From: Candidatus Aenigmatarchaeota archaeon
Lineage (GTDB): Archaea; Aenigmatarchaeota; Aenigmatarchaeia; GW2011-AR5; JACRAC01
Assembly (NCBI GenBank): GCA_016187395.1
Contig: JACPJV010000009.1
Span: forward strand, 1 to 63,114
Direction: 5' to 3'
Length of the DNA stretch: 63,114 bases
Part shown: positions 2,614 through 54,278 of the stretch, in pieces
Position numbering within the stretch: the first letter of the stretch is position 1
Layout of the letters: each line of letters starts with the position of its first letter
Notes under the pieces: generated by a model
Databases searched by the model: none
Told to the model about the DNA's origin: nothing
Seen by the model: the letters and a program-made list of their open reading frames with translations, nothing else
Position numbers and translations under genes: made by a program

Positions 2614-2901
2614 ATGGAAACTGCAAGGTGTGATGAGCGTGGGAGGGTCGTATTGCCCAAAGAACTGAGGGACGAGTTTGGAGAGGAGTATGTCATTGTA
2701 CGGCTTCCTGGGGAGATACTATTCAAGCCCATTCCTAAAGGCGATCCGCTAAGGGCTTTACGTGAGGAGGGAAAAAAGCTTCCGAAAGACATGTCTGTGG
2801 CGGACCTGAAAAGGCAGGCGAGAGAACTTGCGCTTGAAGAAGTCCTTGAAGAAGAGGAGGAAAGAGAAGAACTGAGAAGAAAAGCAAAGGACAGGCAGTA
2901 G
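2614..2901 (+). CDS. AbrB/SpoVT-type antitoxin (VapB-like)
   Basis: N-terminal RGRVVLPKELRDEFG swapped-hairpin motif and an acidic C-terminal tail. It lies directly upstream of a PIN gene. Confidence 0.7.
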   Translation: METARCDERGRVVLPKELRDEFGEEYVIVRLPGEILFKPIPKGDPLRALREEGKKLPKDMSVADLKRQARELALEEVLEEEEEREELRRKAKDRQ

Positions 2902-2943
2902 CTCCTCAAAAACCCGACACCTGCCTGCTATAGATAGGTAGCG

Positions 2944-3327
2944 GTGCTCACTATGCCGTATGCGGATAGCGATTTTTTCCTTGCGCTGATAAAAGAGGAA
3001 GACTGGCTTGCTGAAAGAGCGGAAAAGATTCTGGAGCAATACAAAGGTCGCATATGGACATCTCACTGGGTAATTGTTGAAATACTGATGCTTGCAAAGA
3101 AACACAACTTAGACCCTGAGAACGTAATTTTCAGGATAAGGCAGTTAGCGAGAATAGAGGGGGATTTTCTCATTCTGATAGCTGTCGCGCATCTTATGAA
3201 AGAAAGGGGCATGCGCGTCTTTGACGCGCTGCACGCGCTTTCCTGCGGTCATGACAGCATCATAAGCTCTGACCGTATTTTTGACAAGATTGGTCTCGAG
3301 AGGATAAAACTGGAGGACGGGGGTTAA
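2944..3327 (+). CDS. PIN-domain toxin (VapC-like)
   Basis: 127 aa. The N-terminal acidic DSDFF segment and FDALHAL..SSD pattern are typical of the PIN fold. The ORF track starts at GTG 2944, and an ATG lies at 2953. Confidence 0.75.
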   Translation: MLTMPYADSDFFLALIKEEDWLAERAEKILEQYKGRIWTSHWVIVEILMLAKKHNLDPENVIFRIRQLARIEGDFLILIAVAHLMKERGMRVFDALHALSCGHDSIISSDRIFDKIGLERIKLEDGG

Positions 3328-4308: not shown

Positions 4309-4542
4309 ATGGACTTTACAAAGCCTATAAACCCCAGCAAGCATTTCCGCAACACGTGGATGCGCAACTGGGACTGGGATATGAACGATTTGCGTTCTGC
4401 CTTGGTGAATGCGTACAAAATCGATAAAGCGGGCGCGAACAAATACGAAGCTTATGTGCGAAAGGGAGGAAAGAGCAGGAAAATAATCTTCGCAATTATC
4501 GAAGATGAGACATTCATAATAACAGGGAGTGAAAAAACATGA
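4309..4542 (+). CDS. putative small toxin (DUF4258-like guess)
   Basis: 77 aa. SKHFRNTWMRNW...SRKIIFAIIEDETFIITG. It has a 4-nt ATGA overlap with the downstream AbrB-type gene. Confidence 0.45.
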   Translation: MDFTKPINPSKHFRNTWMRNWDWDMNDLRSALVNAYKIDKAGANKYEAYVRKGGKSRKIIFAIIEDETFIITGSEKT

Positions 4543-4886
4543 AAGAAAAAATCTGCGCGGTGTGCCAGGAAGGCAGGCTGGAGGAGGCGGACAACATAGC
4601 CTCTGAAATAGAGGGCTATATTTTCGTGGAGAAGGGGTGGCGCTGCAGCAAATGCGGAGAAGAATTCATCAAGGAAAATGAGGCACAAAGGACCATCGAG
4701 ATAGCGCGCAAACTGGGCATATGGCCCAAGCCGCTTAAACTGCACAGAAGCATCTCAAAATCAGGGCGCGGGCTTGTCTTGCGCATACCTTCTGATCTGG
4801 AAGATGACCTGAATCTAAAGCCGGGGCAAAGAGTCTCTATAAGCCGCGTGGGGCACAAGATAATAGTTGAGACGGAGGGGAAGTAA
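4539..4886 (+). CDS. zinc-ribbon plus SpoVT/AbrB-domain antitoxin-like protein
   Basis: CAVCQ...CSKCG zinc ribbon followed by GRGLVLRIPSDLEDDLNLKPGQRVSI, an AbrB-like beta motif. Confidence 0.6.
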   Translation: MKEKICAVCQEGRLEEADNIASEIEGYIFVEKGWRCSKCGEEFIKENEAQRTIEIARKLGIWPKPLKLHRSISKSGRGLVLRIPSDLEDDLNLKPGQRVSISRVGHKIIVETEGK

Positions 4887-6465: not shown

Positions 6466-6514
6466 ACGGGAAAAATTCTAAATAATTTCTGGAAGAGGGA
6501 AAAATATCGAAGAA

Positions 6515-6758
6515 ATATAGTGAAGCAAATAAATAAACCCGATATGATCATTTGCTTCCCATACAAGGAGGAACGAAGTTCCTCCTGTACAGCAGAAGCT
6601 TCGCTTCTGCTTGTAGAGTGAACCAAGATTTTTAGTCGGCATTGGTTTCTTGGTTCACTTTATAGTGAAACCACAAATGAAACGGAACATGTATTTGTGC
6701 TTTCCCATATAGCAAACCAACTCTGGTATGCCGTTTATTTAGTTGGTTTGCTATAAAC
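6515..6758. repeat. hairpin-array repeat element (six consecutive stem-loops)
   Basis: ATATAG-hp-CATACAAG-hp(GAGGAAC/GTTCCTC)-CTGTACAG-hp(CAGAAGC/GCTTCTG)-CTTGTAG-hp-TTATAG-hp-CATATAG-hp-CTATAAAC. It fills the gap between convergent genes. Confidence 0.75.
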
Positions 6759-7353: not shown

Positions 7354-9525
7354 ATGGCAAAGGATAAAACAGAATTAGTGAAAGAGCTGATGGAACAGCC
7401 GGAGAAGATACGTAATATCGGAATCGCTGCGCACATCGACCATGGAAAAACCACGCTTTCAGACAGCCTGATAGCAGGCGCCGGCATGATTTCAGAGGAG
7501 CTGGCTGGAAAGCAGCTGTTCATGGACTTCACAAAGCAGGAACAGGAACGCGGAATCACTATATGGGCGGCTAATGCAAGCATGGTTCATGATTATGAAA
7601 ATGGGAATTACCTGATAAACCTCATAGACACACCGGGGCATGTGGATTTTTCCGGCGATGTCACCAGGGCAATGAGGGCAGTTGACGGAGTTATAATCCT
7701 TGTTGACGCAGTCGAGAGCGTGATGCCGCAGACAGAAACGGTAATAAGGCAGGCACTGCGCGAGCGCGTTAAGCCAGTCTTGTTTATAAACAAGGTAGAC
7801 AGGCTTATCCGCGAGCTAAAGTTCACGCCAGAGCAGATGCAGAAGCGGTTTGAAAAAATCATCTCTGACGTAAACAGGCTTATCATAAAATATGCAGAGA
7901 AAGAGTTCGCAGAAAAGTGGATAGTGAAGGTGGACGACGGTTCTGTCGCATTCGGGTCAGGCTATCGAAAATGGGCGATATCGGTTCCTGCCATGAAAAA
8001 AATGCAGATAAGCTTCAAGGACATCATAACCTATACGCAGGAAGACAGGGAAAGGGAACTGTCCAAAAAAGCGCCTGTTCACCAGATTTTGCTGAACATG
8101 GTTATCAAGCATTTGCCTAACCCGCTGGATGCGCAGAAATACAGGATTCCAAAGATATGGAAAGGCGATTTAGAATCAGGCATAGGCAAGGATATGCTTT
8201 CCATGAATTCGAAAGGGGTGCTGGCAGGCGTTGTGACCAAGGTATTGCCGGATCCGCATGCAGGAATTGTGGCTACAGCAAGGCTCTTTTCAGGCGCGAT
8301 ATCCCGCGGACAGGAGGTGCGCCTTATAGGACAACACATGACAAGGCGTATACAGCAGGTGGCGATATACAAGGGCCCGCAAAGAGAACAGATGGAAACC
8401 ATATTTGCAGGCAACATAGTGGCAATAACAGGGATACCGGAGGCATATTCAGGAGAGACTATATGCGACCCAAGCATAGAAATGCACCCTTTCGAGGCGA
8501 TAAAGCATATATTCGAGCCTGTAGTCACGAAGAGCGTAGAGCCGAAAAGCCCACAGGACTTGCAAAAGATCATAAATTTCCTGCGCCAGGTTAGCAGGGA
8601 AGACCCGATGCTGGAAATTAACATCAACGAGGAAACAGGCGAGTATCTTGTTTCTGGACTAGGCGAATTGCATATAAACGCAAAGGTAGAAAGGCCGCTT
8701 TCTGAGATGGGCATAGAAATCAAGGTGTCACCACCCATTGTCGTTTACAGGGAGACGGTGGGCGGAAGAGGCCCTGTTGCAGAGGGAGTAAGCTCAAACA
8801 GGCATAACAGGTTCTATCTAAGCGTGGAACCTCTGGAGCCTGCAGTTTTAGAGGCTATAAACGAGGGCAAGATATCAACAGAGAACGTGAAAAAGAACGT
8901 AAAGGAGGTTACAAAGCAGCTCGTAGATTACGGCATGCCGAGGGATGAGGCAAAGAATATAGTCGACATCTACAACAAAAACGTCCTCGTCGATGCAACA
9001 AAAGGAATACAGTACCTTCATGAAACGATTGAGCTTATCACAGAGGCGTTCAGGAACACGGTGAAAAAGGGTCCGCAGTCAAACGAGCCATGCGTTGGGT
9101 TGAAAGTGCTTGTAAATGACGCAAAGCTGCACGAAGATGCGATACACAGAGGACCTGCGCAGGTGCTTCCAGCTGTGAGCGACTCCATCAGGCAGAGCAT
9201 GATGAGGGCAAAGCCCCTGATACTTGAACCTATCCAGGTAATACGCATAGACGTGCCTGAGGAGATCATGGGCGCAGCTATTTCGCAGGTGCAGAACAGG
9301 AGGGGGCAGGTTATTAACATGGAAACAGACCTGGGAACTTCCATGATAACTGCAAAGATGCCTGTTTCAGAAATGTTCGGGTTTGAGGCGCAATTAAAAA
9401 GCGCAACAGGCGGAAAAGGATTCTACTCGCTGATAGACGTGAAGTTTGAAAAGCTGCCGGGAGAGCTGCAACAAAATGTCATAAGCAAAATCAGGCAGAG
9501 GAAAGGACTGGCAGAGGGGCAGTAG
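7354..9525 (+). CDS. fusA: translation elongation factor aEF-2
   Basis: AHIDHGKTTLSD G1 motif, DTPGH, NKVDR, and the diphthamide-region HEDAIHRGPAQ. 723 aa. Confidence 0.97.
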   Translation: MAKDKTELVKELMEQPEKIRNIGIAAHIDHGKTTLSDSLIAGAGMISEELAGKQLFMDFTKQEQERGITIWAANASMVHDYENGNYLINLIDTPGHVDFSGDVTRAMRAVDGVIILVDAVESVMPQTETVIRQALRERVKPVLFINKVDRLIRELKFTPEQMQKRFEKIISDVNRLIIKYAEKEFAEKWIVKVDDGSVAFGSGYRKWAISVPAMKKMQISFKDIITYTQEDRERELSKKAPVHQILLNMVIKHLPNPLDAQKYRIPKIWKGDLESGIGKDMLSMNSKGVLAGVVTKVLPDPHAGIVATARLFSGAISRGQEVRLIGQHMTRRIQQVAIYKGPQREQMETIFAGNIVAITGIPEAYSGETICDPSIEMHPFEAIKHIFEPVVTKSVEPKSPQDLQKIINFLRQVSREDPMLEININEETGEYLVSGLGELHINAKVERPLSEMGIEIKVSPPIVVYRETVGGRGPVAEGVSSNRHNRFYLSVEPLEPAVLEAINEGKISTENVKKNVKEVTKQLVDYGMPRDEAKNIVDIYNKNVLVDATKGIQYLHETIELITEAFRNTVKKGPQSNEPCVGLKVLVNDAKLHEDAIHRGPAQVLPAVSDSIRQSMMRAKPLILEPIQVIRIDVPEEIMGAAISQVQNRRGQVINMETDLGTSMITAKMPVSEMFGFEAQLKSATGGKGFYSLIDVKFEKLPGELQQNVISKIRQRKGLAEGQ
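9487..9525 (+). repeat. direct repeat copy 1 (authentic aEF-2 3' end)
   Basis: The last 12 codons plus stop (KIRQRKGLAEGQ*) recur at 10060-10098 with 34/39 identity. Confidence 0.9.
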
Positions 9526-9568
9526 AAGTGCGAAGGATAAACACCGAAGAAGTGAACCGGTGATTTTC

Positions 9569-9823
9569 ATGCCTTACGAAATTATCGTGAAAGAGCCTGC
9601 AGAAAGGAAGCTGAGAAAATTCCCGAAGGATATACAGCGCAGATTTGCAAAACGCGCGGAAAAGCTGGCGGAAAACCCGCATTCATTCGGCAAGCCTTTG
9701 AGGAATGTTCTGGCAGGCTATTGGGAAGATTACTTCGAAAGAAGATTCCGCATAATTTATACTATTGACGAAAATTCAAAAACTATTACTATAGAAGCCA
9801 TAAAGCACAAGGATGAATTCTAG
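9569..9823 (+). CDS. RelE/ParE-family toxin
   Basis: AERKLRKFPKDIQRRFAKRAEKLAENP...RFRIIYTIDENSKTITIEAIKHKDEF. GGTGA lies before ATG 9569. The track start is GTG 9560. Confidence 0.7.
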   Translation: MPYEIIVKEPAERKLRKFPKDIQRRFAKRAEKLAENPHSFGKPLRNVLAGYWEDYFERRFRIIYTIDENSKTITIEAIKHKDEF

Positions 9824-10005
9824 AGCCCGAGCTCTTTCCTCACTTCTTTCCAAGGTCTGCCCTTGGAAGTTTTGGATTCCTTGATTTGTTCCATAAGTTC
9901 CTTATCACCCAGAATTTCTATAGTTCTCTGCATACTCTCGTACTCGTCTTTGGAAATAACAACATAGCTAGTTTCATGCCTACCTTTTTCCATCAGCACA
10001 GACAT
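9820..10005 (-). CDS. Phd/YefM-family antitoxin
   Basis: VVISKDEYESMQRTIEILGDKELMEQIKES is a typical Phd/YefM core. GGTGA SD and a TTTAAAT box lie upstream on the minus strand. Confidence 0.7.
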   Translation of the reverse strand: MSVLMEKGRHETSYVVISKDEYESMQRTIEILGDKELMEQIKESKTSKGRPWKEVRKELGL

Positions 10006-10059
10006 GGCATCACCGAACTAATAAATAGGCAAACTGATTTAAATTGATTTGTATCCCGA

Positions 10060-10098
10060 AAAATCAGGCAGAGGAAGGGGCTGGCAGAAGGACAGTAA
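10060..10098 (+). repeat. direct repeat copy 2 (orphan aEF-2 3' end)
   Basis: Encodes the identical KIRQRKGLAEGQ* peptide. All 5 differences from 9487-9525 are synonymous, including TAG to TAA. Confidence 0.9.
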
Positions 10099-14631: not shown

Positions 14632-15882
14632 TTACTTCCGGGTGAGCGCGCGTATTAAGTCTCTGTCAGATATTCCCATCGAGGCCAACTTTCTTTTTGC
14701 CTCCTCATAAACCAGTTTTCTTCTTCTCTCAAATTCTTCGTCTATCTTTACCGCCGTAGCGCGTTCAAAGACAGACAGAAGAAGGCTTTCATCAGCAGGC
14801 TCTGGATGAGGATCTGCAAGGGCTGCTTCGAACAGCTTGCAGCATCTTTCTAAAACTCCAACGGCTTCAGGATATTCACTCTTTTTAATTGGATCCGAAC
14901 TCTTGAAGGCTACGTCAAAATATCCTGAGAAGCGCTTTCTGTCGTAATCAAGCCTTCTTTCTGCCATTTCCACGGCATACGCAACCCATAGGGGCATATT
15001 GTAAAGCGCGGATGCAAAAGATCGGGCAGATTCATGGATTTTTCTTTCATCTTCTGATTCCACGGTTGACGTATGATCAACCCTGCTTATTGCGATTTTT
15101 CCACTCCCTACGTGCGCTATTACGTGGTTTTGCCCAAGAAACGAATCCGGATGCATGACCAGTCTGGAGTCAGCAAGAGCTCTGCATTCAAATGCATGCC
15201 ATTGCAAAAGCGACTCGTAAAGTCTGCAAATACATTCTTTTATTTCTCTTAGCTCTTCCGGAGATGCGTGCTGCAGGTGCCTGCGCATCAGAACTTCAAA
15301 CTCATCCTGCCTGAGGTCACTCTCAATATCCGGCAGCTGAAGCACTTCGGAGTATAAAGGCTCGTTTTGCCATGTCAGAAACGGATATTCTATTGCGCCT
15401 GCGAACCTGCATGGCGAGGCCAATCCTAATTTCGAGTAGGCTTCTCCTAAAATTTCAAATGCCCTGCGGGAATTCCGAATATTTTCACGGGTAAGAAAAT
15501 TCCACGGCCTTCCATCCCTGTATCCAGGAAACGGAACGCAGAGCAGTTTGGAATGCAAAAGCCGCTCAACTGCCTGCGCATCCGGCACAGACTCTGCAGA
15601 ATGATCAACGTCCCGTATGATATTTTTTTCTGAGGCTGAGACTGTCCGTGTTATCACTCCTTTGGGATCTGCCCCTTTGATTCTATAAACTTCGCCATTT
15701 TCTTCTGTCAAAATCCCTCTTCCGCCGGAATTGTAGCAGTTCATATCTCCGTCTTCTGATGCAAAAAGAGGGAGCCTTTCAGATAGCCACGGGGGCATTT
15801 CTCCGGTTGTAGCATGCGGAGTAGCGTAGGTTTTCACAGGGACCTCTACCCGCACACTTTCCAGTATGCTTTTGTATGCCAT
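14632..15882 (-). CDS. hypothetical protein, possibly protein-kinase/APH-like fold
   Basis: HPDSFLGQNHVI (H-x-D..N) and ISRVDHTS (DxG-like) are spaced as in kinase-like catalytic loops. ATG 15882 sits ~23 nt downstream of a TTTAATAATTA box. The track ORF extends to 15918. Confidence 0.5.
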   Translation of the reverse strand: MAYKSILESVRVEVPVKTYATPHATTGEMPPWLSERLPLFASEDGDMNCYNSGGRGILTEENGEVYRIKGADPKGVITRTVSASEKNIIRDVDHSAESVPDAQAVERLLHSKLLCVPFPGYRDGRPWNFLTRENIRNSRRAFEILGEAYSKLGLASPCRFAGAIEYPFLTWQNEPLYSEVLQLPDIESDLRQDEFEVLMRRHLQHASPEELREIKECICRLYESLLQWHAFECRALADSRLVMHPDSFLGQNHVIAHVGSGKIAISRVDHTSTVESEDERKIHESARSFASALYNMPLWVAYAVEMAERRLDYDRKRFSGYFDVAFKSSDPIKKSEYPEAVGVLERCCKLFEAALADPHPEPADESLLLSVFERATAVKIDEEFERRRKLVYEEAKRKLASMGISDRDLIRALTRK

Positions 15883-15914
15883 AGAGTAAGGCCGGAGAAT
15901 AATTATTAAAGCAT

Positions 15915-15941
15915 TCATCCAGTCAGTTCAATTTCGATATC
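15915..15941 (-). repeat. orphan copy of the uS10 gene 3' end
   Basis: On the minus strand it encodes DIEIELTG*, versus NIEIELTG* at the real rps10 end (16490-16516). 22 of the first 26 nt are identical. Confidence 0.75.
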
Positions 15942-16458
15942 AGTCCAGAGTTCTGCGAGTTCCCCAGTATTTGCGCCATTTGTCAAGCAAATAGCCGTAG
16001 AGCCTTGCCGTTCCTCCGCCCAGCAGAAGTCCTGTGGGCAAAGCCACAGCCATTTCCTTCCATGATGCGCCTGAATAGTACAATATTGCTGAATATGTAG
16101 GTATCTGAAATGACAGCATGGCAGATGTGTCCACAAAGCGCTTTTTTGCGCGGCTGCTGTCCATGTCAGCTTTCCATAATCCTGCATACCAGTGCCTGTA
16201 CACGCCGTAAAGCCTGGCAACTGTAAGGTGAAACAAAACACTCCCTACCCTTGACTTCAGGACTTCTTCCGGTTCCATGCCCGCCCAGAAGTATTCCATT
16301 GATCCCAGCAATGGCGTGTAGAACATCAAAGAGCATGAGGTATCAACGAGGTAGTTTTTAAAACCATTCCACATTCTTCGGCTTCTTCTTATTCCGTACA
16401 ATTCATCAAGCAACTCAGGGCTTTGGACAGGATTTGCGTCATCTGCTTCTTTGTTCAT
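15940..16458 (-). CDS. alaE: AlaE-like L-alanine exporter family membrane protein
   Basis: VDTSCSLMFYTP..GME.E...SR...LYGVYRHW and FQIPTYSAILYYSGASW...YGYLLDKWRK align, from memory, with E. coli AlaE (ADTFAMVVY..GMSFEQ..SR..YGMYRD; FQSPVYVAILLVVGADW..YGYFLDYCRR). Confidence 0.7.
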   Translation of the reverse strand: MNKEADDANPVQSPELLDELYGIRRSRRMWNGFKNYLVDTSCSLMFYTPLLGSMEYFWAGMEPEEVLKSRVGSVLFHLTVARLYGVYRHWYAGLWKADMDSSRAKKRFVDTSAMLSFQIPTYSAILYYSGASWKEMAVALPTGLLLGGGTARLYGYLLDKWRKYWGTRRTLD

Positions 16459-16489: not shown

Positions 16490-16819
16490 TCATCCGGTCA
16501 ATTCTATTTCAATATTAACATCACGGGGAATTCTAATTCTTGTAATGCTGTGGAGAACACGCTCATTTGCTGCTACATCCAGGATTCTTTTGTGTATGCG
16601 CATCTCCCAGTGCTCCCAGTTGCCGCCACCGCCGCCGCGGTGCATGCCGTCGCCGCACGGAGTCTTCATGACAGGTATTTTCAGCGTCTTCGTAGGCAGC
16701 GGAATAGGACCTCTAACGACTACACCTGCCTTGTCTGCCATATCCTTTATTTCTGTGCATATGGAGTCAAGCTCCTTCGGGTCCTTTCCCGCCAGCTTTA
16801 TGCGCGCTGTCTGTACCAT
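16490..16819 (-). CDS. rps10: 30S ribosomal protein uS10
   Basis: ARIKLAGKDPKELD...GPIPLPTK...WEMRIHKRILD signatures. 109 aa. Confidence 0.95.
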   Translation of the reverse strand: MVQTARIKLAGKDPKELDSICTEIKDMADKAGVVVRGPIPLPTKTLKIPVMKTPCGDGMHRGGGGGNWEHWEMRIHKRILDVAANERVLHSITRIRIPRDVNIEIELTG

Positions 16820-20551: not shown

Positions 20552-20554
20552 TAA

Positions 20555-20704
20555 TGTGAAACAAGGAAATAATACCGACATGTCCTTGTTTCACATTATA
20601 CAAGCAGAACCATTCGGGTTCTGCTGTACAGCAGGAGCTCTGCTCCTGCTTGTAGTGCACAAGGAATTATCATATCCCGATTTATTCCTTGTAGCACTAT
20701 AAAA
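20555..20704. repeat. hairpin-array repeat element, copy related to 45177-45325
   Basis: 13-bp perfect stem TGTGAAACAAGGA/TCCTTGTTTCACA, then TACAAG-CAGAACC/GGTTCTG-CTGTACAG-CAGGAGC/GCTCCTG-CTTGTAG, then stem TGCACAAGGA/TCCTTGTAGCA and CTATAAAA. It starts 4 nt after a stop codon. Confidence 0.85.
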
Positions 20705-23339: not shown

Positions 23340-23939
23340 ATGGATATAGAACAACTAGGCAATTCCACCTCTGTTATAAGATTTGACGGCTGGCATTTTG
23401 CGCCTGTTGCAAGGAAAATTAAGGAAATTTTGCGCGAACGTCCTGACGCGGCTTTGCAATACGGTGATATTGTGATGGCGAGACTTGAAGCTGAAGAGCT
23501 GGATGTTGGCGAATTCGAGATAGGCACGAGATTTGGAGAGGGCCTGGCACTTGTAAATCTAGAATCAGGAGAGAGCGTTGTTTCACCTTCTGAAGGACAG
23601 ATGGATATCAGGAGGTACAGTGCGCAATTTGCACGGAAATACAAATGGAGCGATGTAAATTTCCGCGTTCTGGTTCCCGAAAGAAAGGGCATGATATATG
23701 TTGCTCATGATATTCCTGGAAGAAGCGATAGGACGTTTGTTCAATGGGCATATCACGCTCACGGTAGAGAGGCAGAAGAGATTCTCTCGGACGCAGAGTA
23801 CGGAATGTTTCAAGTATCGGGTAAACCTGTCCTTAATCTTGCCAATCTTATAAGAGGGGAACGCGCCTTTCTTATGGGAGAAGTGCTTATTGGGGCGACC
23901 GGTATTTACAGAGAGATTCCTAGAGGAAAATCTATCTAA
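23340..23939 (+). CDS. ORFan, paralog A of the pair flanking aIF2-gamma
   Basis: Shares LDVGEFEIGT, RRYSAQFARKY, RVLVPE..G.IYV, DIPGRSD..FVQW and YREIPRG blocks with 25396..25974. Confidence 0.6.
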   Translation: MDIEQLGNSTSVIRFDGWHFAPVARKIKEILRERPDAALQYGDIVMARLEAEELDVGEFEIGTRFGEGLALVNLESGESVVSPSEGQMDIRRYSAQFARKYKWSDVNFRVLVPERKGMIYVAHDIPGRSDRTFVQWAYHAHGREAEEILSDAEYGMFQVSGKPVLNLANLIRGERAFLMGEVLIGATGIYREIPRGKSI

Positions 23940-24118: not shown

Positions 24119-25348
24119 GTGATTATTTTCACAAAGGAAGAGAAGGGAGGGAGGACTGAAGTAAGCATAGGCGTTGTGGGTCACGTAGACCATGGAAAGA
24201 CTACGCTTGTGAAAGCATTAACAGGCAAATGGACTTCCACATACAGCGAAGAATTAAAAAGAGGGATCACAATCAGGCTAGGCTATGCTGACGCGAAATT
24301 TTATTATTGCGAGAAAGACAATTCATATTGTCCAACTCAGAAATGCAGCAAATGCTTTGGTGATGCTAAATTTGCAAGGGCAGTGTCGTTTGTGGATGCA
24401 CCCGGGCATGAGACGCTGATGGCGACGGTACTGAGCGGCGCAGCGCTAATGGACGGCGCGCTGCTGATTATATCTGCGACTGAAAAATGTCCCAGACCGC
24501 AAACGGCTGAACACTTAAAGGCGCTGGAGATTGCGGGCATAGGCAAGATCGTGATCGTGCAAAATAAAATAGATGCTGTTGATGAAAAAAGGGCAAGGGA
24601 AAGTTGCAGGGAGATAAAGGATTTTGTGAAAGGATCCATAGCTGATAATTCACCAATAATCCCTGTATCAGCATTGCACAATGCGAACATAGACATACTC
24701 ATAGAGACGATAGAAAAAGTAATCGAAACACCGGAGCGGAGCCTGAATGATGATTCTGTATTCTATGCGGCACGATCATTTGACGTGAACAAGCCCGGGA
24801 CAGACATTGAAAAGCTCAAGGGAGGCGTTATAGGAGGGGCGCTTTCCAAAGGGAGCATAGAGAAAGGGTCTGAGATAGAAATAGCCCCCGGCTTTAATGA
24901 GAATGGCGTATTCAAAAAACTAAAAACAAAAGTAGTGGGCATAGTGCAGGCGGATTTGCCTCAGGAAAAGGCATATCCAGGCGGACTGGTTGCACTGGAA
25001 ACATCTTTGGACCCGAGCCTGACAAGAGGCGATGTTCTGGCAGGAAATCTTGCAGGGCTTCCTGGAAAGCTGCCTGAATGCAAATTTGTGGTAAAATTCA
25101 AGCCAAACCTTTTTGACTATGTCATAGGCGTGGGCGGGCAGACAGTTGTAAGCCCGATAAAAACAGGCGACGCCCTTCTTGTAACACATGCGGTTGAAAA
25201 AAGCGTGGGCGCGGTCACGTCAGGCTCTGAAAAAGGCGTGGAATTAAAATTAAAGATACCGCTGTGCGTGCAGAAAGGGGATAAAATTGCACTATCAAGG
25301 CAGTCTGGCGGACGCTGGCATCTGATAGGATGGGGGGAGATAGTGTAG
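24119..25348 (+). CDS. eif2g: translation initiation factor aIF2 gamma subunit
   Basis: GVVGHVDHGKTTLVKALTG, the Cys-knuckle CEKDNSYCPTQKCSKC, DAPGHE and QNKID. Confidence 0.95.
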   Translation: MIIFTKEEKGGRTEVSIGVVGHVDHGKTTLVKALTGKWTSTYSEELKRGITIRLGYADAKFYYCEKDNSYCPTQKCSKCFGDAKFARAVSFVDAPGHETLMATVLSGAALMDGALLIISATEKCPRPQTAEHLKALEIAGIGKIVIVQNKIDAVDEKRARESCREIKDFVKGSIADNSPIIPVSALHNANIDILIETIEKVIETPERSLNDDSVFYAARSFDVNKPGTDIEKLKGGVIGGALSKGSIEKGSEIEIAPGFNENGVFKKLKTKVVGIVQADLPQEKAYPGGLVALETSLDPSLTRGDVLAGNLAGLPGKLPECKFVVKFKPNLFDYVIGVGGQTVVSPIKTGDALLVTHAVEKSVGAVTSGSEKGVELKLKIPLCVQKGDKIALSRQSGGRWHLIGWGEIV

Positions 25349-25395: not shown

Positions 25396-25974
25396 ATGCT
25401 ATCAAACCAAGCTAGTGTTGTGAGTCTGGATGAACTGGAGTTAAAGCCCTATATAGTAATTGGGCGAAAGCTTGTGCATGGAGCGCCTAGACTAGCCTTT
25501 GTATTAGGAAAGCTTGTTCTGGTTGGAATTAGAGGCGAAAGGCTGGATGTTGGCGAATTTGAAACAGGCACGATGGAAAGAGAGGTAGAAATAGCAAGAC
25601 GAACTCGGGGAGAAGATTATTTAATGGATGTTTCATATGGACAACCTGTTGTAAGAAGACATAGAGCACGATACGCAAGAAGGTATATGGATGGATTTGA
25701 TGATGAAACTAGGGTACTGGTTCCACAAGACGATGGTCGGATATATGTTGTGCAGAATATACCACGCAGGCCTGACCATTTCGTGCAATGGGATGATTAT
25801 TCCCATGATCCTGAAAAGGAAAGGGTTCTTGACAGTGCTGATTGCGCGATATTTCTAGCGACTAATGCTTCTATAATGCCTTTGGTCGCACTTGTAGGCA
25901 AATCTCACGCCTTGTTTTTGCATAGGGGTTCAGGTTCAGGTGGAAGTTACAGAGAGCTTAATAGGAGAAACTAA
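25396..25974 (+). CDS. ORFan, paralog B of the pair flanking aIF2-gamma
   Basis: LDVGEFETGT, RRHRARYARRY, RVLVPQDDGRIYV, NIPRRPDHFVQW and YRELNRR align with 23340..23939. Confidence 0.6.
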   Translation: MLSNQASVVSLDELELKPYIVIGRKLVHGAPRLAFVLGKLVLVGIRGERLDVGEFETGTMEREVEIARRTRGEDYLMDVSYGQPVVRRHRARYARRYMDGFDDETRVLVPQDDGRIYVVQNIPRRPDHFVQWDDYSHDPEKERVLDSADCAIFLATNASIMPLVALVGKSHALFLHRGSGSGGSYRELNRRN

Positions 25975-27393: not shown

Positions 27394-27675
27394 TTACAGG
27401 TCGTACCCCAGATATTCTTTGATCAGCTTCTTTATTTCTTGTGCTCTTTTAGGATTCAGCGACACCTGCAGGCCGTAGTGAGCGGGCTTCGTCATGATAA
27501 AGCCTTCCCTCACGAGGTCATCGGCAAGATTCTTCACGTTCTTCAGGCCATGCTTGCCCAAGGCTTCTGACCTGAATATGCGGAACATGTTTTCATACGC
27601 CGTATGGCTCTCACCCCATTTTCTTTTTCTTGCAAGGGCGAAAAGAATCTTGGCGCGGAAAACACCATTATTCAT
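27394..27675 (-). CDS. hypothetical small protein (possible wHTH)
   Basis: 93-aa ORF with no strong motif. Confidence 0.45.
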   Translation of the reverse strand: MNNGVFRAKILFALARKRKWGESHTAYENMFRIFRSEALGKHGLKNVKNLADDLVREGFIMTKPAHYGLQVSLNPKRAQEIKKLIKEYLGYDL

Positions 27676-27735
27676 AACTTTACATGGATGTAAAGTTTTA
27701 AATAGTTTGGGTGCCGTATGTTTGCAGTGATAATC

Positions 27736-28059
27736 ATGGACAAATCCATGCTGTTGGAAGTAATAGGAGACACGATAGAAAACAGATTCTTGGATTTCCT
27801 TATCGAAGGGCGCGGGCTTGACTATTCAAAAAAGGACATAGCAGAAGGATGCGGAATATCAAGGCCGACTGTTTATGCAATATTGCCAAAGATGTTGAAG
27901 GAAGGACTCGTGAAATCCACAAGAAAGATAGGGCGCGTGCAGCTTTACACACTGAATGAAAAAAGCGAGAAGGTAAAAATTATGTTAAAACTCGAAGAGA
28001 TGCTTTTGAAAAAATCATTTGAGGAAGTCGGTGCAGGGAAAATGAAGATTCCTGCTTAA
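27736..28059 (+). CDS. winged-helix transcriptional regulator
   Basis: DYSKKDIAEGCGISRPTVYAILPKMLKEGLVKSTRKIGRVQLYTLNE is an HTH plus wing pattern. Confidence 0.6.
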   Translation: MDKSMLLEVIGDTIENRFLDFLIEGRGLDYSKKDIAEGCGISRPTVYAILPKMLKEGLVKSTRKIGRVQLYTLNEKSEKVKIMLKLEEMLLKKSFEEVGAGKMKIPA

Positions 28060-28068
28060 TTTCTTTCA

Positions 28069-28104
28069 AACCTCCTGCATAACCTCCCCTTTCAGGAGCT
28101 TTCT
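28069..28104. repeat. perfect 36-bp direct repeat, distal copy
   Basis: AACCTCCTGCATAACCTCCCCTTTCAGGAGCTTTCT is identical to 28812-28847. Confidence 0.95.
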
Positions 28105-28158
28105 ATCCTGCAGAAAACCTTAAATAAGTAATCTTACTTATCTTACTTAGGTGATAGA

Positions 28159-28386
28159 ATGACGAACATGACTCTGGCAGTTCCTGAAGACCTGAAAGAG
28201 GCGATGGACAGGCACAAGGAAGTCAGGTGGAGCGAGATAGCAAGGCAGGCGATGTGGGAGCATGCACGAAAGCTAGAACTGATGGACAAGCTTCTTGCAA
28301 AGAGCAGGCTGACCGAGAAAGACGCAGAGGAATTGGGCCATAAAATAAAGCATGGAATTGCAAGGAGACACGGGCTGGTAAAATGA
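28159..28386 (+). CDS. VapB-like antitoxin
   Basis: MTLAVPEDLKEAMDRHKEVRWSEIARQA pattern. 4-nt ATGA overlap with the PIN gene. Confidence 0.6.
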   Translation: MTNMTLAVPEDLKEAMDRHKEVRWSEIARQAMWEHARKLELMDKLLAKSRLTEKDAEELGHKIKHGIARRHGLVK

Positions 28387-28805
28387 AAATCGTGGTGGAT
28401 ACGAACAGAATAATAGCAGCTTTAGTCAAAGACAGCACAACGCGGGAAATCCTGTTCGACAGAAATTTTGAGTTTGTAACACCAGACCATACTATAAAGG
28501 AAGTATACGAGCATAAAGACGAATTGAAGGTCAAAACAAATCTCAGCAATGAAGAATTTGACATCCTCATGGCATTTATTTTCGAGCGCATTGAGATTAT
28601 CCCAGAATCAGATTACAGGGATTTTATGGAAGAATGCAGGAATGATATAAGTGATCCGGATGATGTGCCGATTCTTGCTGCGGCTGTCGCCATCAAAACC
28701 GATGGCATATGGGCGCATGACCCTCATTTCAGAGAACAAAACAAGATAAAGGTATTTACGAATATAGACATGCTGAGATTCAGTGGCCGAATGAAATCAG
28801 GTTGA
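28383..28805 (+). CDS. PIN-domain toxin
   Basis: KIVVDTNRIIAAL ... DPDDVPILAAAVA ... DGIWAHDPHF, the acidic residues of the PIN fold. Confidence 0.75.
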   Translation: MKIVVDTNRIIAALVKDSTTREILFDRNFEFVTPDHTIKEVYEHKDELKVKTNLSNEEFDILMAFIFERIEIIPESDYRDFMEECRNDISDPDDVPILAAAVAIKTDGIWAHDPHFREQNKIKVFTNIDMLRFSGRMKSG

Positions 28806-29105
28806 TTACTTAACCTCCTGCATAACCTCCCCTTTCAGGAGCTTTCTCTGGAGGCCCAGGATGAGAAGCTCTGCATCATTATCGCTATAGCCCAACTTTT
28901 TCAGGATCTTTATTCCTTCCGGCAATATTTTGGCGGATACGTTCTTCGACAGCTGGGGATCAAAGGAGAAGAAAGTGGCTTCGAAAGGTATTTTTTCCTC
29001 CAGTTGCATTTCACCGCGCATGGTTATGACGTTGTTTCCATAAGGCGCGAAGCCCTTGACGTAAACGGCGAAATCAGGGACAGGCATGATATCAGCTGAA
29101 ATCAT
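28806..29105 (-). CDS. hypothetical protein whose 3' end is the cassette target
   Basis: 99-aa ORF. Its last 14 codons include repeat copy 28812-28847. Confidence 0.5.
   Translation of the reverse strand: MISADIMPVPDFAVYVKGFAPYGNNVITMRGEMQLEEKIPFEATFFSFDPQLSKNVSAKILPEGIKILKKLGYSDNDAELLILGLQRKLLKGEVMQEVK
28812..28847. repeat. perfect 36-bp direct repeat, gene-proximal copy
   Basis: Identical to 28069-28104. On the minus strand it encodes RKLLKGEVMQEV of ORF 28806..29105. Confidence 0.95.
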
Positions 29106-29137
29106 GGATTTTAAAGCGTTCTTTGCAAAGGCATTCT

Positions 29138-29884
29138 ATGACCTATTACGACCTGCACGTGCACGTGAGGGACAGCGGAGGGGAGAATTCTGCAGACGAC
29201 ATTATATCTATGGCTTCGAAGCTGGGGCTATCCGGGGTAGGCATTGTGCTGCATGCAGAACAGGGATTTGATTCGTTCGATGAATACAAGAAGAAGGGAG
29301 AAAAGGCAGGCATAGACATCGTGTCAGTAGCGCTTGCCCAGGCGAAGAATGTAAATGACATAAAGAGGCTTGTTGCAAAGACAAGAAGCAAGGCTGAGAT
29401 CGTTGCAGTATATGGAGGGGATTACGACATAAACAGGGCTGCCTGCGAAAATCCTATGGTTGACATCCTTTTCCACCCCGAGCGCGGCAGGATAGATTCA
29501 GGCATAGATCATATATGCGCCAGGGCTGCTGCGGAAAACGAAGTAGCTATAGAAATAAATTTTCACGAGCTTCTTGAGAGCTACAGGAAGAAGCGCATAC
29601 GCGTCTTTGCAAGGATGATAAGAAACGTAATGCTCTGCGGGAAGTTTGGCGCTAAAACTATAGCCACCTCAGGTTCAATCTCAAAATGGGACATGCGCTT
29701 TGGAAGGGAGCTGGCGGCTATACCGTACCTGCTTGGGGAAGAATTAGGCAAGAGCATAGAAAGCGCATCCACGATCCCAGAAGATATTGTGAAAAAGAAC
29801 AGGGAAAAGCTGGCAGGAAAGAAGTGGGAGGGCGTTGCTGTGGTAGAGGATTTAACGCAGTTTACAAAAAAGGAAGGTGAGTAA
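29138..29884 (+). CDS. rnp3: RNase P protein component 3 (Rpp30)
   Basis: MTYYDLHVHV start and a TIM-barrel/PHP-like pattern. A Pop5 gene lies downstream. Confidence 0.8.
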   Translation: MTYYDLHVHVRDSGGENSADDIISMASKLGLSGVGIVLHAEQGFDSFDEYKKKGEKAGIDIVSVALAQAKNVNDIKRLVAKTRSKAEIVAVYGGDYDINRAACENPMVDILFHPERGRIDSGIDHICARAAAENEVAIEINFHELLESYRKKRIRVFARMIRNVMLCGKFGAKTIATSGSISKWDMRFGRELAAIPYLLGEELGKSIESASTIPEDIVKKNREKLAGKKWEGVAVVEDLTQFTKKEGE

Positions 29885-29984: not shown

Positions 29985-30188
29985 CCACCGCCTACAATGC
30001 GAATCGAAGATTCGCATGTACAGAAGGAATCTTTGATTCCTTCTTGTAAAGGCGGTGGTTTCACAAGGTCTTCAGCACAAGGAGAAGCGAGCTTCTCCTG
30101 TGCAGGAGGAACTTCGTTCCTCCTTGCATGCCAAAGAAGTTCGGTATCTTATCCTCTGCCTAAAGGCAGAGGGTTTAGAACTTCTTTG
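29985..30188. repeat. hairpin-array repeat element between rnp3 and rnp2
   Basis: CCACCGCC-TACAA-hp-TGTACAG-hp-CTTGTA-aa-GGCGGTGG, then CACAAG-hp-CTGTGCAG-hp-CTTGCA, then nested CAAAGAAGTT[CGGTATCTTAT CCTCTGCC taaa GGCAGAGG]AACTTCTTTG. Confidence 0.7.
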
Positions 30189-45176: not shown

Positions 45177-45325
45177 TTTATAGTGCTACAAGGAATAAAT
45201 CGGGATATAATAATTCCTTGTGCACTACAAGCAGGAGCAGAGCTCCTGCTGTACAGCAGAACTCGGAGAGTTCTGCCTGTATACTGTGAAACAAGGATAT
45301 GCCGGTATTATTTCCTCGTTTCACA
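45177..45325. repeat. hairpin-array repeat element, inverted copy of 20555-20704
   Basis: The reverse complement aligns almost base for base with 20555-20704. The CAGAACC/GGTTCTG arm is replaced by CAGAACTC/GAGTTCTG. It abuts the ALDH stop codon. Confidence 0.85.
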
Positions 45326-46858
45326 TTAAGGGATATTTTTTCCATAAACAACTCTATGCCAGGGCTTTCTTGCCCTGCCCGATTGGTCTATGTAGACGTG
45401 CTTTATGTTCGTGTATTCTTCTAATGAAAAAATAGATAGGTCTTTGCCAAAGCCGCTCTGCTTGTAACCGCCATGAGGCATCTCGCTGACAAGCACGCCA
45501 TGCTCGTTGAGCCACACTGTGCCGAAGCGCAGCTGCGCAGCAAGGCGCATCGCCTGCGTGATATCACGACCCCAGACGCTTGCCGCCAGGCCGTAAATCA
45601 CGTCATTAGCCTCTTCAACAGCCTGCTCGAGATTTTCGTAAGTCAGGATAGTTAGTACAGGGCCAAATATTTCCTCCTGGCATATTTTCATACTCTGCTT
45701 TGCATTTGTGAAAATGGTCGGCATCAAGTACGCGCCCTTTTCAAAAAATTTGCCTTTCGGTCTTGTGCCACCATAGATTAATTTCGCATTTTGCTGGACG
45801 CCTGATTTGATATAGCCTTCCACTCTGTCCCTCTGGCGCATGCTCACAAGCGGACCCATATCGGTGTTGTAATTAAGCGGATCACCAATTCTGAATTTGC
45901 GAACTTCTGCAATGAGTTTTTTCACAAAGGAATCATGCTGTTTTTTATGAATAAACACGCGCGTAACAGCTGTGCAGTCCTGGCCTGTGTTCCAGAATGC
46001 TCCTGCTGCTGCGCCTTTTGCTGCTGCATCCAAATCAGCGTCGGACATGACTATCATCGGCGCCTTGCCGCCGAGCTCCAAATGCAATCTTTTCACATTC
46101 GCGCTTGACGCCTGCATTATCTTCCTCCCTGTCGATGTGTCGCCGGTCATCGCTATCATGTCTATCTTTGTGTTTTCCGCAATAGCCGCGCCCACGATAT
46201 CGCCCGGCCCTGTCACTACATTCAGCGCGCCTTTTGGCAATCCTGCCTTTTCCGCAAGCTTTGCAAACTCAAGCAGCGTGAGTGGCGTGTAGCTTGCCGG
46301 CTTGACAACCAAGGTATTACCAGCTGCAAGCGCAGGCGCCATCTGCCATGTAGCGATGTAAAGCGGATAATTCCAAGGCACTATACAACCAATAACGCCA
46401 ATAGGCTCGCGGCGGATGATGCTTGTTCCGAGTGCAGCATGGCGCCCTTTTTTGCTGTAATCTGCGTATTCGTATGTGGATTCGCCGAGAAGGACACGGG
46501 TAAGCCCTGCAAAGTAGCGCCAGTTGTCGATGATGAACGGAAAATCAGATTCCGTGGCATAGCGTATGCTTTTGCCGACATTCGTTGCCTCGAGCCGCGC
46601 AAGACGGCTAAGATTTTTCTCAATTAAGTCGGCAATCTTCCAGAGAACCGAGGCACGCTCGGCTGGGGTCACCTGTGGCCAATGACCTTTGTCAAATGCG
46701 GTGCGGGCTGCATCCGCTGCCTTGCGTACGTCTTCTTTTGTACCTTTCGGGACTTTTGCTATTATGCGGGAATTTGCAGGATTTACGACACTGTAAAATT
46801 CGCCGGATTCAGAATTGCACCACCGGCCATTTATGTACATCTTGCAGACAGAAGGCAT
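45326..46858 (-). CDS. NAD(P)-dependent aldehyde dehydrogenase
   Basis: WNYPL, LELGGKAP and FWNTGQDCTA catalytic-Cys context. 510 aa. Confidence 0.9.
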   Translation of the reverse strand: MPSVCKMYINGRWCNSESGEFYSVVNPANSRIIAKVPKGTKEDVRKAADAARTAFDKGHWPQVTPAERASVLWKIADLIEKNLSRLARLEATNVGKSIRYATESDFPFIIDNWRYFAGLTRVLLGESTYEYADYSKKGRHAALGTSIIRREPIGVIGCIVPWNYPLYIATWQMAPALAAGNTLVVKPASYTPLTLLEFAKLAEKAGLPKGALNVVTGPGDIVGAAIAENTKIDMIAMTGDTSTGRKIMQASSANVKRLHLELGGKAPMIVMSDADLDAAAKGAAAGAFWNTGQDCTAVTRVFIHKKQHDSFVKKLIAEVRKFRIGDPLNYNTDMGPLVSMRQRDRVEGYIKSGVQQNAKLIYGGTRPKGKFFEKGAYLMPTIFTNAKQSMKICQEEIFGPVLTILTYENLEQAVEEANDVIYGLAASVWGRDITQAMRLAAQLRFGTVWLNEHGVLVSEMPHGGYKQSGFGKDLSIFSLEEYTNIKHVYIDQSGRARKPWHRVVYGKNIP

Positions 46859-53368: not shown

Positions 53369-53986
53369 ATGAGCGACAACAAGAGCATGGCAGCTATGAC
53401 ACTGGTCATAGTGGCTGTGGCAATCATGGCATTCAACCAGTATACCTTGATGTCCATAAACGGAGGCACAGCTGCAATAACAGGAAACGTCGTGGCTGAG
53501 CAGCAGAACGCAGCCACGCTGCAGGAGGCGATAGACGCGGTCATTCCGAGAGGTGTGCCTGCTGTCTACGGCGAGGAGCTCGGGGTGAGCTTTGACAAGC
53601 CGCAGGAGTCGCTGAACATACTTGCGAATCTGGACGGCGACCTTTATGACAACGGCAAGCTGCACTTCGCTGATTTGACGGCAGAGCAGCAGGAGAGCTA
53701 CAAGCAGATAGGCGCGTCGATTGCATGCGAGTATTGCTGCGGAGCAACCACGCTGATCTTCAGCAACGGCCAGCCTGCGTGCGGGTGCGCGCACTCGGCA
53801 GGCATGAGAGGGCTTGCAATGTATTTGCTCATAAACAATCCAGAAATGAGCAACGAGCAGATTTTGGATGAGCTAACAGACTGGAAGGCGCTGTTCTTCC
53901 CCAAGGAGATGGTTGCCAAATACATGCAGCAGAACGGGCTGACGCAGGGCGCGGCAGAGCTTCCGGATATGGTAGGAGGGTGCTAA
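53369..53986 (+). CDS. single-pass protein with CCG / P-x-CGC Cys cluster and C-terminal MVGGC
   Basis: N-terminal TM. CEYCCGATT...QPACGCAHSAGMRG resembles the PCYCGC-motif family. It ends in LPDMVGGC*. Confidence 0.6.
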   Translation: MSDNKSMAAMTLVIVAVAIMAFNQYTLMSINGGTAAITGNVVAEQQNAATLQEAIDAVIPRGVPAVYGEELGVSFDKPQESLNILANLDGDLYDNGKLHFADLTAEQQESYKQIGASIACEYCCGATTLIFSNGQPACGCAHSAGMRGLAMYLLINNPEMSNEQILDELTDWKALFFPKEMVAKYMQQNGLTQGAAELPDMVGGC

Positions 53987-54008
53987 GCGAATCGTGAGGT
54001 TGATTTCA

Positions 54009-54278
54009 ATGGCAAGAAAAACAGAGGATGAAGAAAATTTAGAAGATGACAGCAAAACCGGGTGGCATGCAAGCAGACAAAGAGAAAGCAGCGTAAGCAC
54101 GGTTCTGATTGTGCTGCTGGCTGTGCTGGTGCTATTCTCTGCAGCGCAGGCTGTGCAATTGGCAGAGATAAGGAGCGAAGGGTTGCCTTTGACAGGAAAC
54201 GTTGCAGCGCCGCAGCAGCAGGCGCAAGTGCCACAAAGCCTGCAGAATGATCTCCCTGAAATGCAGGGTGGTTGCTGA
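54009..54278 (+). CDS. single-pass mini-protein ending in MQGGC
   Basis: GTGAGGTGA SD lies 5 nt before ATG 54009. TM, then LTGNVAAPQQQ, ending in LPEMQGGC*. This resembles the head and tail of 53369..53986. Confidence 0.5.
   Translation: MARKTEDEENLEDDSKTGWHASRQRESSVSTVLIVLLAVLVLFSAAQAVQLAEIRSEGLPLTGNVAAPQQQAQVPQSLQNDLPEMQGGC

Follow-up and report, generated by a model that had tools for sequence, protein, structure and literature searches.

We analysed a 63,114-nucleotide stretch of contig JACPJV010000009.1 of a Candidatus Aenigmatarchaeota archaeon (GenBank assembly GCA_016187395.1; this whole stretch is called the window below), in which a 36-mer, AACCTCCTGCATAACCTCCCCTTTCAGGAGCTTTCT, occurs as two exact direct copies around a gene pair resembling a VapBC toxin–antitoxin (TA) module (Table 1). 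The copies lie 743 nt apart, start to start, and the 707 bp between them (28105-28811) carry a promoter-like region, an antitoxin gene and the gene of a PIN-domain toxin. The original prediction for this DNA, made from the letters alone, had described a perfect duplication of a gene 3′ end at these positions, flanking such a cassette. Both parts hold: the copies are identical (0 mismatches), and the contents of the cassette are borne out by a PF10130 match of the toxin, by RHH_12 homologues of the antitoxin and by a TATA-like box.

A duplicated gene end around a VapBC cassette

The right copy lies within a minus-strand open reading frame (ORF), the target gene, where it makes up codons −13 to −2 (RKLLKGEVMQEV, followed by K and the stop TAA), and this TAA stands immediately next to the PIN gene's TGA. 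On the far side of the cassette lies the left copy, which is continued in frame by a TGA and begins 9 nt beyond the stop codon (TAA, 28057-28059) of a wHTH (winged helix-turn-helix) gene; the 6 nt from the relic TGA to the wHTH TAA are a former junction of convergent genes. Before the event the target gene ended in ..EV-TGA, and it now ends in ..EVK-TAA. It is divergent from the RNase P p30 gene (29123-29884). Only two other 90% clusters of the target protein exist among 5.8 billion proteins (74% and 69% identity), always beside Rpp30, and an exact look-up of the protein returned no other contig. A 140-aa gene at the same position in loci L008–L011, taken at first for the PIN gene, encodes an unrelated protein.

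When the window was compared with itself by BLAST, the 36-bp pair was the sole perfect repeat with a length of 30 nt or more. No third copy of the 36-mer was found in the window with up to three mismatches allowed, and 100 dinucleotide-preserving shuffles gave 0 matches. A meaningless repeat, due to chance, to a local duplication unrelated to mobility or to an artefact of metagenome assembly, would be easiest to entertain because the window is a single metagenomic contig with no second assembly of the locus on record. Zero chance matches are expected, however, the relic keeps its in-frame stop and the old gene junction, and the architecture is repeated in many independent assemblies and samples (tRNA-Leu locus, 24 contigs; see below), which makes an explanation of this kind highly improbable.

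Table 1. Features at the three cassette sites, with positions in the window
Feature	Position	Strand	Remarks
wHTH gene	27718-28059	+	Stop once faced the target gene's stop; HTH_24, TrmB and HTH_Crp_2 matches
Original stop of target gene (TGA)	28066-28068	-	In frame with relic; read from sequence
Left direct repeat, displaced relic	28069-28104	-	Exact repeat; last 12 sense codons of target gene, encoding RKLLKGEVMQEV
Left end of cassette	28105-28158	+	TATA-like box TTAAATAAG, palindromic AAGTAA/TTACTT operator-like repeats, GGTGAT ribosome-binding site; functions putative
Antitoxin gene	28159-28386	+	75 aa, RHH_12-type, VapB-like; ORF, homologues recorded as PF26688 (RHH_12)
PIN_2 toxin gene	28383-28805	+	140 aa, VapC-like; PF10130, E = 1.4e-20
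New last codon and stop of target gene	28806-28811	-	AAG (K) and TAA, on cassette side of repeat; read from sequence
Right direct repeat, working copy	28812-28847	-	Exact repeat, inside target gene
Target gene	28806-29105	-	99-aa ORF, probably 93 aa from MPVPDF; no Pfam match
Predicted empty-site junction			..CCTGCTTAATTTCTTTCA + 36-mer + CTGGAGGCC..
Predicted circle junction			..GGTTGATTACTT + 36-mer + ATCCTGCAG..
aEF-2 gene	7354-9525	+
Working 3′ end of aEF-2 gene	9487-9525	+	KIRQRKGLAEGQ, then stop TAG
RelE/ParE cassette	9526-10059		Toxin gene 9560/9569-9823 (+), convergent 61-aa partner 9820-10005 (-)
aEF-2 tail relic	10060-10098	+	Stop TAA; 34/39 identical to working copy
rps10	16490-16819	-	tblastn versus S10, E = 2e-27
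Working 3′ end of rps10	16490-16519	-	Last 9 codons and stop; NIEIELTG, then stop
Single-gene AlaE-family cassette	15940-16458	-	PF06610, E = 1.2e-20
rps10 tail relic	15915-15941	-	DIEIELTG, then stop TGA

The two genes of the cassette are co-oriented, and the PIN start codon overlaps the antitoxin stop codon by 4 nt (ATGA). Residues D6, D91, D94, D113 and D129 of the PIN protein are invariant in 25 homologues including the window copy. By these acidic residues and the overlapping upstream antitoxin gene the pair is predicted to be a type II, VapBC-like TA module; the RHH_12 record of the antitoxin family refers to the homologues checked and not to the window protein itself. Relatives of the PIN protein (180 homologues, 53–75% identity) were, where named, Woese-, Nano- or Aenigmarchaeota proteins, and species-representative genomes, most with a DPANN lineage label, yielded 62 loci (designated by L numbers). 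A 75-aa gene starting MTNMTLAVPEDLH precedes the PIN gene in 58 of the 59 tabulated loci, and the motif TTTAAATAAGTAA..TTACTTA..TTACTTAGGTGAT upstream of the antitoxin gene is kept in L012, L030, L032, L034, L043, L077 and L092. Minimal units start 12–15 nt upstream of the TATA box and end 0–10 nt past the PIN stop; no motif common to the cassette ends was found. In PLSDB, only haloarchaeal plasmid homologues of the PIN protein with ~30% identity were present. These data support the view that the 707 bp were inserted as a self-contained TA cassette, whose family is widespread among DPANN archaea.

The same anatomy is supported at two further gene ends of the window, those of the aEF-2 gene and of rps10. 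At aEF-2, a RelE/ParE cassette (ParE_toxin, E = 2.1e-08; weak Phd match), whose convergent 61-aa partner gene has its own TTTAAAT box, separates the working tail from a relic that lies outside any ORF, with a stop 4 codons upstream. The convergent two-gene module is also present in the Aenigmarchaeota loci L133 and L141. The two aEF-2 tails differ at five positions, all third-position and synonymous, and since their stop codons differ (TAG versus TAA) the working tail appears to be tied to the cassette next to it. At rps10, the TGA of the relic overlaps the ATG of a downstream 428-aa gene (14632-15918) as ATGA, indicating that the relic is the original operon junction. The longest identical run between the working and relic tails of rps10 is 6 nt, and for aEF-2 and rps10 alike most differences between relic and working end are at synonymous sites. 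The 36-bp site is the freshest example in the window of this recurrent footprint. The recency that the original prediction had ascribed to the event is plausible given the perfect repeat, but an empty allele of the site is not on record.

With the same anatomy at aEF-2 and rps10, and with no integrase in them, the proposed set of three integrase-less cassettes of 0.5–0.7 kb at gene 3′ ends stands. Pfam searches of the three cassettes and of 30 window ORFs detected no integrase or transposase, the remaining window ORFs having been inspected by eye only. No attC-like palindrome or terminal inverted repeat bounds the three cassettes, where only short, chance-level inverted repeats were seen, and cas1 and polB are absent from them. 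There was no sign of an intI/attI platform either: no integrase domain occurred in the 30 scanned ORFs, and the three cassettes lie at three separate genes. The earlier statement that the cassettes do not match integrons is thus borne out. A helper element with an integrase and the same att site was found neither in the 63-kb window nor in the retrieved loci, and a search of viral contigs for PIN relatives gave no match.

Two inverted repeats at the VapBC site, one within the 36-mer (AACCTCCTG/CAGGAGCTT, 15-nt spacer) and one of 9 nt at the cassette ends (TAAGTAATC/GATTACTTA), are not conserved at other loci and were treated as chance or operator half-sites. The G+C content of cassettes (0.41–0.47, versus 0.462 in the window) was uninformative.

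The differences between relic and working tails bear on their history. In six diverged repeat pairs, mismatches were distributed over codon positions 1/2/3 as 10/2/20, and 23 synonymous codon changes stood against 8 non-synonymous ones. Neutral decay of the relic would be expected to place ~27% of changes at position 2 and to make ~60% of them non-synonymous. Decay in place was therefore rejected, both by the deficit at position 2 (P = 0.004) and by the non-synonymous changes (P = 1e-4). The coding-type pattern indicates that relic and working tail diverged while both were coding, and we take them to be two alleles of the gene end from different lineages.

Recurrence at other gene ends and a tRNA-Leu hot spot

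Repeats around the cassettes were scored in 56 loci as the best ungapped match between the 400 nt upstream of the antitoxin gene and the 200 nt downstream of the PIN stop, with 660 mismatched locus pairs as the null (mean 8.8, maximum 14). The null maximum was exceeded in 10/56 loci, and approximately five further loci share the 3′ end of tRNA-Leu. The repeats are copies of the end of the adjacent gene, which is either convergent with the PIN gene or upstream of, and co-directional with, the antitoxin gene. Their sequence differs at nearly every site. The duplicated ends include those of SRP54 (38 nt, perfect; L073), a DUF4440 gene (45 nt; L043), a 501-aa gene (94 nt; L039), an acyl-CoA synthetase-like gene (25 nt; L036), RtcB (at least 43 nt; L063), a PPDK_N gene (23 nt, perfect; L046), a HEAT-repeat gene (48 nt; L041), an SMC-like gene (decayed repeat; L060), an 81-aa ORF with no family assigned (195 nt, 99%; L085), an L7Ae/L30e gene and tRNA-Leu; the repeat of L087 is also perfect. 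With lengths of 14–195 nt, a fixed target-site duplication is ruled out.

In unbiased scans, all ORF tails in the window and in non-redundant loci were compared with downstream DNA, upstream DNA serving as the control. At a nucleotide score of at least 16 there were 12 downstream matches versus 3 in the control, and tails compared as peptide plus stop gave 9 versus 1. The scans also caught non-PIN inserts such as a 149-aa gene in L020. According to the original prediction, the three cases in the window could have been coincidental duplications if they stood alone; by locus repeats and tail scans alike, further examples are abundant in other DPANN genomes.

Some sites have been used more than once. 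In L066 the L30e tail is followed by the wHTH gene, then by relic 1 (with 3 synonymous changes), VapBC and a decayed relic 2. Of the two relics, the younger lies closer to the gene, suggesting that insertion takes place at the working tail and that older cassettes are shoved outward. The arrangement in the window, with a perfect relic, VapBC next to the gene and the wHTH gene beyond, fits this array picture. Homologues of the window wHTH gene accompany the cassettes of L092 (70% nt) and L066 (39% aa, E = 1e-18), and the L066 copy, bracketed by gene-tail copies, may be a single-gene cassette of the same kind. Beyond the relic in the window, the wHTH gene is followed by a 93-aa gene (27394-27675) and a 153-aa gene. 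All three are absent between L15e and the target gene in relatives, and no older relic of the target gene's tail was detectable beyond the wHTH gene in the window.

The small wHTH family (motif ..DFLIE.+G.D.SKK+I..) recurs beside RHH_12/PIN_2 cassettes, namely in the window (27718-28059), L066 (1438-1755), L092 (359-667), L106 and L096 (2542-2883). The closest relative of the window cassette (L092, 640-1640; 75% nt) lies between homologues of the divergently oriented wHTH and 93-aa genes of the window, so that the wHTH gene has its cassette on one side in the window and on the other in L092. In L092, a 31-nt direct repeat (1603-1633 and 2972-3002; 97%) also brackets a 428-aa gene, which may be another cassette of the same kind.

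Empty and alternative alleles were found where the target is a tRNA gene. The cassettes of L012 and L111 lie directly beside a tRNA-Leu(TAG) gene with an intron, and their flanking repeat is ATGCGGAGGACAGG. Default ARAGORN, and Rfam at the gathering threshold, missed the tRNA beside the L012 cassette, which ARAGORN with introns allowed reports as tRNA-Leu(TAG). With a 31-mer taken from the 3′ half of tRNA-Leu, 36 metagenomic loci were retrieved, and 24 contigs from JGI, ENA and NCBI were read at this locus. The common synteny is a 75-aa lysine-rich gene, 75–85 nt, tRNA-Leu, L37e and LSm. The site is empty in the syntenic loci L101, L108, L125 and L098; in L111 and L012 the VapBC cassette adds 787 nt, with a repeat of 14 nt. 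The left flank of L097 is identical to that of the occupied L111 at 606 of 607 positions and is joined straight to the tRNA. L097 is a clean empty allele for the left junction only, its right flank being different and its tRNA being without an intron. These loci establish, for the tRNA-Leu target of the same cassette family, the presence/absence polymorphism by which the original prediction had proposed to judge the case.

Between L097 and L111/L012 the tRNA-Leu exons are identical, a 36-nt intron is present only in the cassette-bearing allele and the right flanks are unrelated. Identical exons and left flank next to an unrelated right flank point to the tRNA as a recent recombination breakpoint. 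Solo copies of the tRNA 3′ end (13–17 nt) lie 51–83 nt from the tRNA in L102 and L104 with no gene between, and could be scars of lost cassettes or mini-insertions. Candidate relics in L106 and L119 were not counted, as they are probably second tRNA copies or long partial copies.

Other occupants of the site are a two-gene cassette in L118 (192 and 254 aa, AbiEi/AbiEii-like by eye; repeat of 19–23 nt), islands of 2.8 kb in L128 and L110 (by eye ArsR, ACR3 and a 419-aa gene) and an island of 5 kb in L114 (by eye an ABC transporter, ChrA and Fic). A rival explanation is that each cassette is the remnant of a larger integrase element, a plasmid or virus, which integrated at a gene end and was deleted down to an addictive TA module between attL and attR. 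Integrase elements have the same att-like structure and the same kinds of target, namely EF-2 and the 3′ ends of tRNA and protein genes, with a replacement stop (PMC6563490), and the resistance of TA modules to loss would explain the excess of VapBC, RelE, AbiE-like and Fic genes in cassettes. The window site, however, combines a perfect repeat with only ~8 nt to the left and 6 nt to the right of the cassette that are unaccounted for, and full trimming without a change in the 36-nt non-coding relic is unlikely; the same is true of L073 and L087. No integrase or fragment of one was seen in the cassettes or in the 1.6–5 kb tRNA-Leu islands (translations inspected by eye only), the AlaE cassette, which is not a TA module, has the same footprint, and IMG/VR viral contigs held no relatives of the PIN protein. 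On balance we regard a trimmed integrase element as quite unlikely.

The position of the relics at the tRNA is informative about what the incoming DNA carried. Five relics have their outer edge at the tRNA 3′ terminus, with a deviation of at most 1 nt, despite an available spacer of 32–80 nt (~7e-6 if placement were random). This pinning indicates that the incoming DNA already bore the conserved gene end, in the manner of an attP site, and that the duplication was not made from arbitrary target DNA. It thereby speaks against duplicative insertion without prior homology, in which a linear fragment would enter a staggered break, or template switching would occur, fill-in would yield a duplication of variable length and selection would keep the insertions that preserve the gene tail. 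Several observations suit such a process: repeats are perfect in the window, L073, L087 and L046, they can be as short as 14 nt or as long as 195 nt, almost every event has its own target, and the relative of the cassette in L092 was inserted with a deletion. At a coding density of 91% and with a former spacer of 6 nt, selection alone would also confine insertions to gene ends. Yet the relic differences are of the synonymous type rather than those of neutral decay, so that later recombination between lineages would have to be added, and neither terminal inverted repeats nor a transposase were found. We therefore consider insertion at a staggered break unlikely.

Other repeats and TA-like modules in the window

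The window contains further repeats. A ~155-nt element occurs at 20552-20703 (+), 45177-45328 (-), 6509-6663 (-) and 30077-30130 (+), two copies being 93% identical and two diverged. It folds into four consecutive hairpins (minimum free energy −76.5 kcal/mol, z = −11.8) whose stems are kept by two-sided changes, and it matches no Rfam family. The copies at 20552-20703 and 45177-45328 begin right after a gene stop codon. The element could be similar to a miniature inverted-repeat transposable element, or a 3′ untranslated region or terminator element. Repeat families D1, D5 and D6 are accounted for by two paralogue pairs that are unrelated to the cassettes. One pair, diverged (23340-23939 and 25396-25974), flanks a GTPase gene (24119-25348) that is aIF2-gamma-like by eye; the other, in tandem and also diverged (53369-53986 and 53994-54278), shares a ..GGC C-terminus.

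Three more TA-like modules lie at 46-497, 2614-3327 and 4539-4886. The first consists of a 62-aa gene and a ParE-like toxin gene, with a stop 1 nt from that of a convergent POR-like gene, and any relic would lie beyond the window edge. The second combines an AbrB-like gene with a PIN gene (PF01850), and the third includes a Zn-ribbon/MazE-like gene. No relics were detected at the two modules internal to the window.

Mechanism and relation to known elements

We propose that integration is of the Campbell type, proceeds through a portable gene-end copy and has its catalyst outside the cassette, and we give this account about an even chance of being correct. The incoming cassette DNA, most simply circular, would carry, in the role of a portable attachment site, a copy of the target gene's end. 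One reciprocal crossover between that copy and the chromosomal 3′ end of the target gene (93 aa) would then produce the order gene body, working end, cassette, relic end and old downstream DNA. The gene would stay intact, and in the present case the cassette side would add one codon and a new stop to it. Likewise, aEF-2 and rps10 would have received their RelE and AlaE cassettes with gene-end copies from diverged lineages, and new cassettes, entering at the working end, would displace older ones outward to give arrays. The anatomy, its presence at many targets, the alleles that are empty or hold other inserts and the coding-type divergence between relics and working ends are observed, whereas the circular intermediate and the enzyme are inferred.

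Candidates for the enzyme are the host's homologous or short-homology recombination and a tyrosine recombinase that acts in trans. We lean towards a function encoded outside the cassette and of low sequence specificity. Host recombination or a low-specificity enzyme is favoured over a site-specific integrase because the junction on the relic side is variable, because the L092 insertion came with a deletion and because the conserved targets are good homology anchors.

Several observations weigh against Campbell-type integration. No circular form of the window cassette was found, and the records hold no empty allele of the site in the window, the homologues of the target gene (69–74%) having other neighbours. 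Approximately 70% of cassette loci are without a detectable repeat, and neither of the two other RelE loci examined, L133 and L141, has a flanking repeat. The limit of the cassette on the relic side varies from 54 to 271 nt upstream of the ATG. In L092 the cassette truncates the homologue of the 93-aa gene (27394-27675) by ~35 codons with no duplication, an insertion with deletion that looks like plain illegitimate recombination. A homology of 14–36 nt, or one between diverged tails such as those of rps10, is short for RadA-type recombination. Finally, targets differ in nearly every independent event, and if a cassette carries the tail of its last site, each new target needs another, illegitimate step.

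The original prediction also held that the cassettes match no known archaeal integrative element. This was overstated, as in structure the sites show the classical attL/attR duplication known from 3′ ends of tRNA and protein genes. Integrated elements of thaumarchaea are bounded by direct repeats at such 3′ ends, rebuild the gene and sometimes supply its stop; their att sites measure 8–69 bp, and they are at least 2.6 kb in size with an integrase of their own (PMC6563490). Like archaeal tyrosine-integrase elements, the cassettes have direct repeats at gene ends, a reconstituted gene, a new stop, re-used sites and arrays. Unlike them, the units are of 0.5–0.8 kb, carry no recombinase and have a different repeat at nearly every site, of up to 195 nt. 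Casposons insert by means of Cas1 with target-site duplications of 14–15 bp, often at the 3′ ends of tRNA or EF-2 genes, EF-2 being a common target (PMC6563490). The aEF-2 and tRNA 3′-end targets and the 14-nt repeat at tRNA-Leu are similar, whereas terminal inverted repeats, cas1 and polB are lacking and repeat lengths range over 14–195 nt. In kind, the footprint belongs with att-type integration at gene ends, of which it is a variant; its unusual traits are the size of the units, the lack of a recombinase gene and repeats that are specific to each site and different from one another.

In Sulfolobus, integrase elements bring about 'gene capture' at tRNA genes. Streptococcal cis-mobilizable elements are att-flanked islands without recombination genes that are mobilised by a related integrative and conjugative element (ICE) at the fda 3′ end. 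They resemble the cassettes in having attL and attR around an integrase-less unit, a protein-gene 3′ end as target and tandem build-up, but they are several kb in size, ICE-derived and share the att site of the ICE, while no helper or shared att site was seen here. Integron cassettes often carry TA modules, as in the Vibrio superintegron, and archaeal integrons have been reported. They too are small one- or two-gene units with a promoter, enriched in TA modules and arranged in arrays that grow at one end. In contrast, the units described here have no attC-like palindrome and no intI/attI, and occupy many gene ends rather than one platform. In transformable bacteria, the 'minimal mobile elements' of Neisseria and homology-facilitated illegitimate recombination involve exchanges that usually leave no duplicated gene end. 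Minimal mobile elements are likewise cassettes without a mobility gene that are swapped via homology in conserved flanking genes; the relic of our sites differs in that it needs either one crossover only or a junction that falls upstream of the gene end.

In a literature search, we found no account of DPANN cassettes that are without an integrase and lie between gene-end repeats. For Sulfolobales, gains and losses of TA modules have been recorded without a mechanism (PMC3119797). Little is understood of how accessory genes are gained by DPANN archaea, whose genomes are very small and compact. We put forward, as a tentative and on present evidence doubtful generalization, that these archaea would have a general route of cassette acquisition with no need of a dedicated integrase, that units of 0.5–2 kb, mostly TA modules, would travel with a short copy of a conserved host gene end as an exchangeable attachment site, that host recombination would insert them at the orthologous end and that arrays with fossil tails would result, a route analogous to integrons without intI and attC.

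The footprint itself, a fossil gene tail beyond a compact insert, is searchable, and it dates and orders insertion events. The fossil tail also keeps a gene-end allele of the lineage that underwent the event. Should no integrase take part, the relics and the altered C-termini found in core genes such as those of aEF-2, S10, SRP54 and RtcB would be relevant to annotation, and the process would amount to a minimal form of site-directed gene capture, relevant to models for the origin of integrons and of att-based elements.

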